From Candidatus Abzuiibacterium crystallinum (GTDB lineage: Bacteria > Omnitrophota > Omnitrophia > Omnitrophales > Abzuiibacteriaceae), in assembly GCA_002787155.1 (NCBI GenBank), contig PCVY01000016.1, positions 71,884 through 135,883 on the forward strand: a stretch of 64,000 bases of DNA. The letters are read 5' to 3'. The notes under the pieces are model-generated. The model was given only the letters and a program-made list of their open reading frames with translations, searched no databases and was not told the origin of the DNA. A program made the position numbers and the translations under genes. Each line of letters starts with the position of its first letter. Position 1 is the first letter of the stretch. Of the stretch, positions 5,997-7,820 are shown piece by piece.

Positions 5997-7820
5997 ATGA
6001 GTTCAGTTCGTCATTTTTTCACAGAAAACAAGAGGCAAGTTTTTGCAATTGTTGTAGTTGTTTTAATTGGCTATCTTGTCTTTGCTCCCGCTTTAAAATA
6101 TGGTTTTCATAATATTGATGATTACGATTACGTTGTCGTCAACTCCGATATCCGGGGTTTTAATTTAGATTATGCAGCTAAGTGGTTGACGCGTGATTAT
6201 GTACTGATGTACGTCCCTGTCACCATGGCTTCGTTTGCCCTCGACTACCAAATCTGGGGACAGCAACCGTTCGGTTATCATCTTACTAATTTATTGTTCC
6301 ATATTGCGAATGCCTTGTTGCTATATTTGCTTTTACTTCGACTCTCTAAGCACTGGTGGCTTGTGTTTGCGTCTACCTTATTATTTGTTTTTCACCCCGT
6401 TCAAATTGAAACAGTGGTTTGGGTTAGTGAACGGAAAAACTTATTAGCTGCCTTTTTTTGTTTACTCACTTTGCATCAGTATCTCAACCGCCGCTGGTTT
6501 CAGACGCTATTCTTTTTTCTTTTAGCCTTACTTTCCAAGCCCAGCATGGTCATTATCCCCGTGCTGATTGGCTGGCATCAAATTTGTTTTGAGCCTATGT
6601 GGAAGAAATATAAGCAATATGGTTTATTAGCACTCATGATAGCAGCCTCTTTTTTGATTGGGATATATATGGTTACCATCAATCGCCAGACCGAGATCAT
6701 TTTAAGAGGTGGTACGCATTGGAGTAACTTTTTAACTTCGATAACGGTCTACTATCGCTATGTTCAATTACTTTTATTTCCATTTACACAACAACTTTGG
6801 CGTGTCACCGAACTTTATACATCAATTTGGCGGCTACCGGTTCTTGTGACGTTGATTGGTTTAGCCGTGGTTTTTTCCGCTATCGTTTCGCAGCGTAAAA
6901 AAGAACCAATGGCATGTTTTATGGCAGGTTGGTTTTTTATTCATTTGATTCCAAATTCACATTTAATTCTTGCCGTTCAAAGTTTTATGCAAGATCGTTA
7001 TCTTTACTTACCGATGGTTGGATTTTACTGGGTAGGATTTTATCTCATACACAAAGTAACAAAAGGCGCCTTATTTCCAGCCGGGTCTTCGACTGTCGCA
7101 TCGTCTGGCCCTACGCTCGCAATTTTTTTGATACTGGCAATGCCATTGCTTTGGTTGCAGCAAGAGCGGTTAAGACTTTGGAAGAATCCCGTTTTGCTTT
7201 GGGAGGCAGACATTTCAAAAGCCCGATATCCCGATGGGCGTCTATATGAGGGGTTAGCTTCAGCCCATACCATGGCAGGCGACATTCAAAGCGGAACCAT
7301 TGCTACTGAGCAGGCGATGATCTATCGACCAACGACCGAAACCCTGTTTAGACAAATTCAGAATTTTCTCTTTGCCGGAAACGCAGAAAGTGCGCTAGAA
7401 ACGCTGAAAGAGATCGGAAAAACATATGATCAAATGACGCCTTTATACAAGTCACTTTATCTCGATCTTTATGGCTTTTACTACGCGATTATTGGTGAGA
7501 AAGATTTGGCATTGGAATCTTACCAGCGGGCTGCCAAGCTGCATCAGTCGGTGAGCCCTTATGTTCACATAGCTGATATGTATTATGCAAAAGGGCAGCG
7601 GGAGAAGGCTATCGAAGAAGTGAAAAGAGCTTTAGCGGTAGATCCTGATGCGCTTACCGTTTTGAAACGCCTATGTAGTTGGCATATCGAATTGGGACAA
7701 TTTGAAGAAGCTTATCAATATTATCAAAAGCTGCTTCGGATTGTGCCGAACGATGACTATGTGAAGTTTATTAGTCGTAATATGGAAAGAAAAATAAATG
7801 AGCAGTCAAAACCCTCCTAG
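5997..7820 (+). CDS. Polytopic membrane protein with TMTC/DUF1736-like GT-C glycosyltransferase N-terminal domain and C-terminal TPR repeats
   Basis: About 10 transmembrane helices. First loop carries FHNIDDYDYVVVNSDIR. ...PVTMASFALDYQIWGQQPFGYHLTNLLFHIANALLLYLLL matches the conserved TMTC/PMT-like first-loop and TM2 signature. The last ~230 aa are TPR-like (Y/A/L periodicity, e.g. AIEEVKRALAVDPD). RBS AGGTGAGAAAG. Confidence 0.6.
   Translation: MSSVRHFFTENKRQVFAIVVVVLIGYLVFAPALKYGFHNIDDYDYVVVNSDIRGFNLDYAAKWLTRDYVLMYVPVTMASFALDYQIWGQQPFGYHLTNLLFHIANALLLYLLLLRLSKHWWLVFASTLLFVFHPVQIETVVWVSERKNLLAAFFCLLTLHQYLNRRWFQTLFFFLLALLSKPSMVIIPVLIGWHQICFEPMWKKYKQYGLLALMIAASFLIGIYMVTINRQTEIILRGGTHWSNFLTSITVYYRYVQLLLFPFTQQLWRVTELYTSIWRLPVLVTLIGLAVVFSAIVSQRKKEPMACFMAGWFFIHLIPNSHLILAVQSFMQDRYLYLPMVGFYWVGFYLIHKVTKGALFPAGSSTVASSGPTLAIFLILAMPLLWLQQERLRLWKNPVLLWEADISKARYPDGRLYEGLASAHTMAGDIQSGTIATEQAMIYRPTTETLFRQIQNFLFAGNAESALETLKEIGKTYDQMTPLYKSLYLDLYGFYYAIIGEKDLALESYQRAAKLHQSVSPYVHIADMYYAKGQREKAIEEVKRALAVDPDALTVLKRLCSWHIELGQFEEAYQYYQKLLRIVPNDDYVKFISRNMERKINEQSKPS

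Follow-up and report, generated by a model that had tools for sequence, protein, structure and literature searches.

A conserved gene for a putative GT-C-fold enzyme with tetratricopeptide repeats follows the major pilin gene in a type IV pilus locus of the Omnitrophota

Introduction

The closest described system to the locus considered here is that of TfpW (GenBank AAM52060.1), an enzyme of the GT-C superfamily encoded immediately downstream of pilA in Pseudomonas aeruginosa group IV. The protein has 646 aa, an N-terminus in the cytoplasm, 11 predicted transmembrane (TM) helices and a large periplasmic tetratricopeptide repeat (TPR) domain; its periplasmic loop 1 holds an essential DDX motif and its loop 4 a YX6PFX7P motif, and its best modelling template was ArnT. 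It adds D-arabinofuranose to Ser/Thr of the pilin, mainly at Thr64 and Thr66 in the alpha-beta loop, and homologs lie beside pilA in Azotobacter, Acinetobacter, Teredinibacter, P. indica and Kingella (bioRxiv 10.1101/2020.04.19.049825). The strains concerned are Pa5196 and PA7 (P. aeruginosa / P. paraeruginosa group IV). TfpW has been placed among the extracytoplasmic glycosylation systems of three components, in which a GT-C enzyme works with a flippase and with a synthase of the lipid-linked donor (PMC11194591), and glycosylation by TfpO and TfpW protects against pilus-specific phages (PMC11841053). A Rho-independent terminator behind the pilin gene, by which the accessory gene that follows is attenuated, is a hallmark of pilin-accessory cassettes (PMC11841053). 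Here we describe a gene of similar layout, called X below, in a stretch of 64,000 nucleotides (the window) of contig PCVY01000016.1 from Candidatus Abzuiibacterium crystallinum, a member of the phylum Omnitrophota. X lies between the major pilin gene and pilMNOPQ, and its product is annotated in the database as 'hypothetical protein COV74_01600'.

We consider it probable that X encodes a dedicated inner-membrane GT-C/TPR accessory enzyme of the major pilin and is a functional counterpart, possibly a homolog, of TfpW. An earlier reading made from the letters alone (the sequence-only reading) had proposed a TMTC-like enzyme at this place; the open reading frame (ORF) exists exactly as described there, with the same strand and length, and the sequence strings which it quoted were found as written (Table 1).

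Results

A GT-C membrane domain with an intact active site

That the product of X is an enzyme of the GT-C fold, with its TPR domain in the periplasm and its active site intact, is almost certain. A prediction of 11 TM helices, with the N-terminus inside and the C-terminus outside, fits the AF2 secondary structure, the hydropathy and the positive-inside rule (14 Lys/Arg in the short cytoplasmic loops vs 2 in the short periplasmic loops) better than the approximately 10 helices counted at first sight, and H241-260 reads as a periplasmic juxtamembrane helix. In this predicted topology the loop carrying the DD motif faces the periplasm, and the TPR domain lies there too. The C-terminal position of the repeats had been recognized correctly, their length less so, since the TPR region covers about 195 aa (aa ~414-604, approximately 5.5 repeats) and not about 230.

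The assignment to the GT-C enzymes is based on the homologs and on the fold. Pfam PMT_2 (PF13231) is matched by 6 of the 18 aligned homologs (best E 9.3e-10), X itself being below the threshold; the same family is precomputed for many homologs, some of which are named GT39 or protein O-mannosyltransferase in their source databases. Sequence searches of the PDB, with the whole protein and with a membrane-only profile, gave TPR matches only or none, and the Foldseek comparison of the full-length model with the PDB was swamped by TPR proteins and thus uninformative for the enzyme domain. The fold was consequently read from a second, membrane-only model, whose closest structural matches are protein O-mannosyltransferases, with ArnT, AftA/AftB and ALG enzymes also among the neighbours. 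The structural comparison thus agrees with the glycosyltransferase fold that had been suspected.

To describe the active site, three alignments were used: A1 with 56 family members, A2 with 18 membrane domains, and A3, which together with the copy of locus L096 comprises 7 syntenic copies. Across the family (A1/A2), D41-D42, N49, P74, D83, N98, H133-P134, E138, R146, P188, Y255, P262, P319, D333 and W395 are invariant, and K147, K181, R334 and Y337 nearly so; in the predicted topology these residues fall within or beside the periplasmic loops. The DD pair in the first periplasmic loop, noticed earlier along with the C-terminal TPRs, is invariant in all three alignments, and its equivalents are motif M1 of the TMTC proteins, D77/E78 of Pmt1 and D55/E56 of ArnT (PMC7801869). 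The residues of HPVQIETVVWVSERK are likely sugar and phosphate contacts, and R146 appears to match the position of the Arg in TMTC motif M3 (RxD; PMC7801869). The loop 4 motif resembles YX6PFX7P of TfpW and YX6PX5P of EmbC, but F263 varies among the orthologs (Y/H/F/F/I), and the eighth residue after it is T, not P. The DRYLY of loop 5 is the counterpart of TMTC motif M7 (ERxxY), which holds the phosphate-binding Arg of GT-C enzymes (PMC7801869). R146/K147, K181 and R334 stand at positions equivalent to phosphate-binding residues (PMC7801869), an indirect hint, like the small GT2 enzymes clustered with relatives, at a polyprenyl-phosphate donor.

A pilin-terminator-accessory cassette fixed in the lineage

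Related loci were chosen through the closest relatives of PilM (50-69% identical), which gave five contigs (L092-L096). In all five genomes an ortholog of X of 586-610 aa, bearing TPRs, is found immediately upstream of pilM; the next genes upstream, on contigs long enough to show them, are a prepilin gene (152-153 aa), pilR and pilS. The membrane-domain profile matches every one of the orthologs (E between about 1e-104 and 1e-116), and all 21 invariant residues that were checked are kept in 7 of 7 syntenic copies. In a neighbor-joining tree, six syntenic copies form an exclusive clade among 55 other family members; the L096 copy, found later, is outside this tree. The position of X within the pilus locus, as read from the window, is thereby borne out and is shared by the five related loci.

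The spacer between the pilin gene and X carries a Rho-independent terminator-like hairpin (5915-5949, dG -26.9 kcal/mol, z -6.3), and none of 200 shuffled sequences was equally stable. Hairpins of unrelated sequence are located at the same place in L093, L094, L095 and L096, i.e. in 4 of the 4 loci that include the spacer. The end of the pilin gene at 5882, the hairpin and the start of X at 5997 together make up a layout of the TfpW type, which is repeated in L093-L096. Owing to the synteny, the kept residues, the exclusive clade and the spacer hairpins, X is an inherited and fixed part of the pilus locus of this lineage, as a pilin-terminator-accessory cassette.

Two of the related loci show tandem genes. 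In L092 (L092:1-3580), two X genes encoding proteins of 604 and 594 aa, 38% identical to each other, lie in tandem upstream of pilM. In L096 (L096:5935-7091), two tandem prepilin genes (168 and 152 aa) precede X, and only the second is orthologous to the pilin of the window.

The major pilin as candidate acceptor

Translated from the ATG, the prepilin has 152 aa and a class III signal with the leader MNTMLIKMNKKG/FTLVE; the mature form has 143 aa, and Cys115-Cys136 define its C-terminal loop (D-region). Ser and Thr amount to 21% of the mature pilin, and to 11.7% of 14 other proteins encoded in the window. The last 37 aa hold 11 Ser/Thr and 7 Gly, in agreement with the Ser/Thr/Gly-rich tail pointed out by the sequence-only reading, although the alpha-beta loop (mature residues 61-82) is the densest Ser/Thr stretch of the protein. 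The orthologs of the pilin are 68-76% identical, with Ser/Thr conserved at positions 67, 71, 78, 110, 112, 130 and 139; residues 1-56 are 96% invariant across them, and the part beyond residue 56 is 41% invariant.

In two independent assemblies of one organism (L002:2-220 and L003:2-220), the contig breaks within the pilin gene upstream of X. These breaks may reflect strain-level variation of the pilin or repeated conserved pilin N-termini.

In our analysis, O-glycosylation of the pilin would be the most economical function of X, and the pilin is suggested as the acceptor because of the conserved position of X, the cassette layout, the TfpW precedent and the Ser/Thr-rich pilin. A cytoplasmic GT2-type synthase encoded elsewhere would put a monosaccharide on polyprenyl phosphate, and the lipid-linked sugar would then be flipped to the periplasmic face. 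Its sugar-phosphate head group could be bound by D41-D42, H133/E138/R146/K147, K181 in loop 3, Y255/P262 and D333-R334-Y337, and the sugar passed to Ser/Thr of the globular domain of the pilin while the N-terminal helix still anchors it in the inner membrane. In the alpha-beta loop the candidate sites would be the conserved T67, S/T71 and T78, and close to the disulfide loop S110, T112, T130 and S/T139. The TPR domain would recruit the pilin, and the hairpin after the pilin gene would hold the enzyme at a low ratio to its substrate. By analogy with TfpW and TfpO, the likely pay-off would be the masking of the pilus surface from pilus-specific phages or antagonists, pilin stability, or both.

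An enzyme-specific rate anomaly

X is the fastest-diverging gene of the pil locus, its orthologs being 32-42% identical among themselves vs 68-76% for the pilin. Relative to the window, identity reaches 71% for PilC, 68-76% for PilA, 64-67% for PilQ, 50-69% for PilM, 55-57% for PilR and 37-53% for PilN/PilO, and X stays at 32-36% whatever the distance of the genome. RNase G is 72-95% identical across the related loci, and in the closest pair (L094/L095) the values are 95% for RNase G, 88% for PilC, 75% for PilA and 39% for X. Within the protein, divergence is highest in the TPR domain (26-30% identity) and lowest in loop 1 (46-61%). Replacement by paralogs as the source of this low identity is unsupported, the six tested syntenic copies forming an exclusive clade.

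As read from the sequences, fast divergence together with a frozen active site and one tandem duplicate would resemble the behaviour of specificity-determining surface-glycosylation genes, and the anomaly is a hint of diversifying pressure on the pilus glycan or on acceptor specificity. A further, tentative and rather doubtful proposal goes beyond this: the pilus-locus clade would be an independent recruitment from the PMT_2/TMTC-like GT-C/TPR family and not a TfpW ortholog, and its divergence would come from selection, diversifying or balancing, on the specificity for the glycan or for the acceptor site. If this were true, the locus would contain a serotype-like switch of the pilus glycan, under the pressure of phages that target pili or of a host-dependent lifestyle of the Omnitrophota, and would offer a bacterial model for the choice of clients by the TPR domains of TMTC-type enzymes. 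What is new here, and worth recording, is how strictly the lineage conserves the cassette, together with the enzyme-specific rate anomaly.

Discussion

Several observations weigh against a dedicated pilin-glycosylating role of X. Both the glycosylation of the pilin and its choice as the acceptor rest on inference. Pfam gave no match to the membrane domain of X alone at E<=10, DUF1736 and PMT/PMT_2 included. A gene for donor synthesis or for a flippase is not found in the 64-kb window, where the search brought up only Bat/MoxR, trp, his and housekeeping operons. A scan of species-representative genomes listed more than 600 family matches in many phyla, and among the 80 loci sampled for their context a prepilin gene lies within 8 kb in only about 3-6; moreover, the close homologs P0010 and P0020 are located in unrelated contexts. 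Finally, X is far more divergent than the pilin, which is not what simple enzyme-substrate co-evolution predicts. The scarcity of pilus-linked loci in the sample and the unrelated contexts of P0010 and P0020 imply that family membership by itself predicts nothing about the acceptor, and a general linkage of the family to pili is rejected on the same count.

It is on the whole unlikely that X is an active GT-C protein glycosyltransferase which modifies, instead of the major pilin or in addition to it, PilN, PilO, PilP, PilQ, minor pilins or wider envelope proteins, and which would sit in the pil locus for co-regulation only. The family is indeed large, present as several paralogs in many genomes and mostly unlinked to pili, with a paralog pattern suggesting that each paralog has its own clients, as in TMTC1-4 (PMC7801869); the much faster divergence of X than of the pilin and the long Ser/Thr/Glu-rich N-terminal linker of PilQ point in the same direction. 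The local arrangement argues otherwise: X directly after the pilin gene with a terminator in between is the layout of cassettes whose accessory protein acts on the pilin, the 309-bp gap with its promoter-like site sets X apart from pilM, and TfpW, the sole characterised enzyme with such an architecture and position, acts on the pilin. An acceptor of lipid or polysaccharide nature, in the style of ArnT with lipid A or of GtrC-type enzymes with O-antigen, the TPRs then binding glycan, is highly improbable. The structural neighbours of X include ArnT, AftA/AftB and ALG enzymes, TPR domains are able to bind polysaccharides and some members of the family stand in polysaccharide clusters (L007), but the best structural matches are protein O-mannosyltransferases, polysaccharide or lipopolysaccharide genes are found neither in the locus nor in the window, and the slot behind the pilin gene is strictly conserved.

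A role mainly as a TPR scaffold or assembly factor, either a pilotin analogue or a TfpY-like chaperone for which glycosyl transfer would be dispensable, is very unlikely. No separate TPR pilotin gene is present at the pil locus, and non-enzymatic pilin accessory proteins such as TfpY do exist (PMC11841053). The matches of X to the NCBIfam pilotin models are, however, far under the cutoffs (PilW TIGR02521, 35.2 bits for a cutoff of 154; Tgl NF033762, 16.7 bits for 225) and span only about 70-85 residues of generic TPR. X has no lipobox and no Cys in its first 40 residues, so that it is not an outer-membrane lipoprotein. The alternative of a PilF/PilW/Tgl-type pilotin put forward by the sequence-only reading is thus left with no specific support, and a pilotin role as the primary function is rejected on these scores. 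The TPR part is also the least conserved of the protein (26-30%, vs 64-67% for PilQ), while the GT-C active-site residues are invariant across hyper-divergent orthologs, which therefore indicates selection for catalysis.

Should X prove to be the pilin-directed counterpart of TfpW, glycosylation of this type would reach from a few Proteobacteria to an uncultured phylum, as a fixed and vertically inherited part of the locus. X also makes a conceptual link between TfpW and the bacterial PMT_2/TMTC-like GT-C/TPR proteins, a very large family that is almost uncharacterised and whose members are mostly annotated just as 'tetratricopeptide repeat protein'; the pilus-locus clade gives this family a member with an obvious candidate substrate.

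The wider family

Family members near pilins were seen in a few of the sampled loci. A type IVa-like pilin lies within 8 kb only in L013, L022 and L041 among the 80, and three further loci, of the PVC group, have nearby N-methyl proteins, which are abundant in those phyla. Two of the prepilin-linked loci directly adjoin a pilin, one of them being L041; the family member beside a pilin in L013 belongs to the Nitrospinota. In L041 (L041:5186-9821, a metagenome-assembled genome of the Acidobacteriaceae), a divergently transcribed family member of 631 aa adjoins three pilin paralogs in tandem, which are of the same N-terminal class (AIAIPNLMRARMAAN), and this is a second, independent adjacency of a pilin and a GT-C/TPR gene. 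The best non-self homolog of X, P0002, follows a prepilin-type gene (128 aa) and two large Pfam-less proteins (484 and 812 aa) on a short contig (L005:296-6091).

Other contexts are of a different kind. In L089:432-4476 and L090:8001-14002, family members cluster with a small GT2 (63% identical between the two loci), a PMT_2 protein and a conserved Pfam-less membrane protein of 581 aa (42% identical), and L090 has three family paralogs. This cluster looks like a multi-enzyme island for periplasmic protein glycosylation, in which the small GT2 is the expected partner making the polyprenyl-phosphate sugar. In L007 a family member lies within a polysaccharide cluster with Wzy_C and Polysacc_synt_3. 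A search with a full-length profile returned 1.78 million matches at E<=1e-3 and 235,030 at E<=1e-30, numbers which are inflated by TPR-only proteins and do not represent the size of the family; many proteins of 680-1,000 aa match this profile from the membrane domain through the TPRs. In a word-indexed search with the A3 clade profile only the window protein scored high, the known orthologs being missed, which is a limit of the method.

Organization of the locus

The gene order is pilB-pilC-pilS-pilR-pilin-X-pilM-pilN-pilO-pilP-like-pilQ, each neighbour being backed by Pfam and NCBIfam (Table 1). Two PilB-like ATPases (587 and 568 aa; MshEN and T2SSE), accompanied by a small stand-alone MshEN-domain protein, lie upstream of pilC in L001 (L001:1408-5336). 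The window opens inside the second of them, and the GTG start listed at 97 is therefore an artefact. No PilT-type gene was seen at the pil locus and no paralog of X in the window. The sigma-54-like element upstream of the pilin gene differs from TGGCAC-N5-TTGCW by 3 mismatches, one at the -12 GC, and the pattern has no enrichment in the window, so that the element is only suggestive. Between X and pilM, the gap of 309 bp (7821-8129) contains a sigma-70-like site, ATGATA-17-TATAAT, at 7890-7918; pilMNOPQ may therefore have its own promoter. PilQ has a long acidic, Ser/Thr-rich, low-complexity N-terminal region (about aa 35-120) ahead of its STN/N0 domain; this region would be another candidate for the acceptor of a periplasmic O-glycosyltransferase.

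Further along the window, a Bat/MoxR-type operon is located on the minus strand (21782-27609) with an AAA_3 MoxR ATPase, DUF58, two vWA/BatA-like proteins and a TPR protein, and DnaK is found with a second sigma-54 two-component pair (28570-33232).

Table 1. Positions of the features described in the text, numbered along the 64,000-nucleotide window.
Feature	Position	Strand	Characteristics
Upstream pilus genes	1..5204	+	Pfam T2SSE, T2SSF, HisKA/HATPase_c/6TM_PilS, Response_reg/Sigma54_activat/HTH_8
pilB, 3' part	to 1332	+	gene start lies before the window
pilC	1356-2582	+	
pilS	2590-3831	+	
pilR	3831-5204	+	
Sigma-54-like element, weak	5356..5371	+	TGGCAT-N5-TTGAC; upstream of the pilin gene
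Major pilin gene	5424..5882	+	ATG start, ORF opens at GTG 5415; N_methyl PF07963 E 2.8e-9, TIGR02532
Rho-independent terminator-like hairpin	5915..5955	+	16-bp stem without mismatches, loop of 3 nt and U-run; in the spacer from the pilin gene to X
GT-C/TPR gene X	5997-7820	+	607 aa; ATG start, with the ribosome-binding site GAAGGTGAG 8 nt before it
GT-C fold membrane domain of X, aa 1-410	5997..7226	+	11 predicted TM helices, N-terminus cytoplasmic
D41-D42 acidic motif, periplasmic loop 1	6117..6122	+	invariant in A1 (56), A2 (18) and 7/7 syntenic copies
HPVQIETVVWVSERK (H133 P134 E138 R146 K147), loop 2 / TM4 start	6393..6437	+	invariant or near-invariant
Y255-x6-P262-F263, periplasmic loop 4	6759..6785	+	Y255 and P262 invariant
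D333-R334-Y-L-Y337, periplasmic loop 5	6993..7007	+	invariant in A2 and in all 7 syntenic copies
C-terminal TPR domain of X, aa 414-604	7236..7808	+	11 helices, predicted periplasmic; Pfam TPR_2 3.3e-14 and others; PDB TPR matches
pilM	8130-9194	+	Pfam PilM_2
pilN	9199-9810	+	Pfam PilN (weak)
pilO	9812-10450	+	Pfam PilO
pilP-like	10447-10803	+	
pilQ secretin	10825-12540	+	Pfam Secretin/Secretin_N/STN
Whole pilM-pilQ block	8130..12540	+	same order in L092-L096

Comparison with known systems

The eukaryotic TMTC proteins, which are protein O-mannosyltransferases of the ER in the GT-C/PMT clan, share with X a general architecture. Like TMTC1-4, X is predicted to combine 11 TM helices with a juxtamembrane helix in loop 4 and with non-cytoplasmic TPRs (PMC7801869). 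Of the motifs M1-M7 that define these proteins (DD, SHKSYRP, RxD, KE(T/Q)xxT, DW, PxxP and ERxxY; PMC7801869), M1 (DD) and M7 (DRYLY) are present in full, i.e. two of the seven. M2 is represented in part by Y-x-P74, M3 by R146 with N148 and M4 by K181 with P182, these last two being devoid of the acidic residues; M5 (DW) is absent and M6 (PxxP) unmatched. DUF1736 was detected neither in X (E<=10) nor in 18 relatives (E<=0.01). X is moreover bacterial, and its donor would be a bacterial polyprenyl-phosphate sugar vs dolichyl-phosphate mannose. The description as TMTC-like therefore stands for the architecture and the clan but not for the family, X having two complete motifs out of seven, no DW and no DUF1736. 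With the PMT/GT39 enzymes (yeast Pmt1/2/4) the identity is 10-13%, and X has no MIR domain but a TPR domain in its place, which is the probable acceptor-binding module.

PglL, TfpO (PilO) and PglA have the same role as that proposed for X, the periplasmic O-glycosylation of pilins, and tfpO is also located directly after pilA. Their fold is nevertheless unrelated, and Wzy_C (PF04932) is unmatched in X. The Wzy_C enzymes move a preassembled oligosaccharide en bloc from undecaprenyl diphosphate; in the PMT/ArnT type of GT-C enzyme, single sugars are taken from a polyprenyl monophosphate donor. PilF, PilW and Tgl resemble X in having TPRs, in facing the periplasm and in their link to type IV pili, but unlike X, which has an 11-TM domain and no lipobox, they are small lipoproteins of the outer membrane that have no enzyme domain in the membrane.

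The closest resemblance is with TfpW, compared here through its published description since no match of this name appeared among the protein-search results and tblastn against plasmids gave no match. X occupies the same slot after the pilin gene, behind a hairpin, with a similar size (607 vs 646 aa), the same 11-TM topology with the N-terminus inside, and periplasmic TPRs; loop 1 carries D41-D42-Y43, in agreement with DDX, and loop 4 carries Y255-VQLLLF-P262-F263, a partial counterpart of YX6PFX7P. TfpW having been described with the same architecture, position and role, the claim that no described type IV pilus locus has this arrangement fails. The related suggestion of a different, non-Wzy_C class of enzyme for pilin glycosylation agrees with the missing Wzy_C match, but such a class is already known from TfpW. 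Unlike TfpW, X lacks the final P of YX6PFX7P, and the F of this motif is not conserved in its orthologs. Genes of the D-arabinofuranose pathway (DPPR synthase, DprE1, DprE2, GtrA-like) were not found among the ORFs scanned in the 64-kb window, and the donor of X may well be different from D-arabinofuranose. Taken together, these comparisons leave current concepts unchanged and provide a solid annotation and a modest lead: X differs from TfpW by its hyper-divergent orthologs and by its position wedged between pilA and pilMNOPQ in one contiguous pil supercluster, in an arrangement that is known from TfpW and in a phylum, the Omnitrophota, that is new for it.

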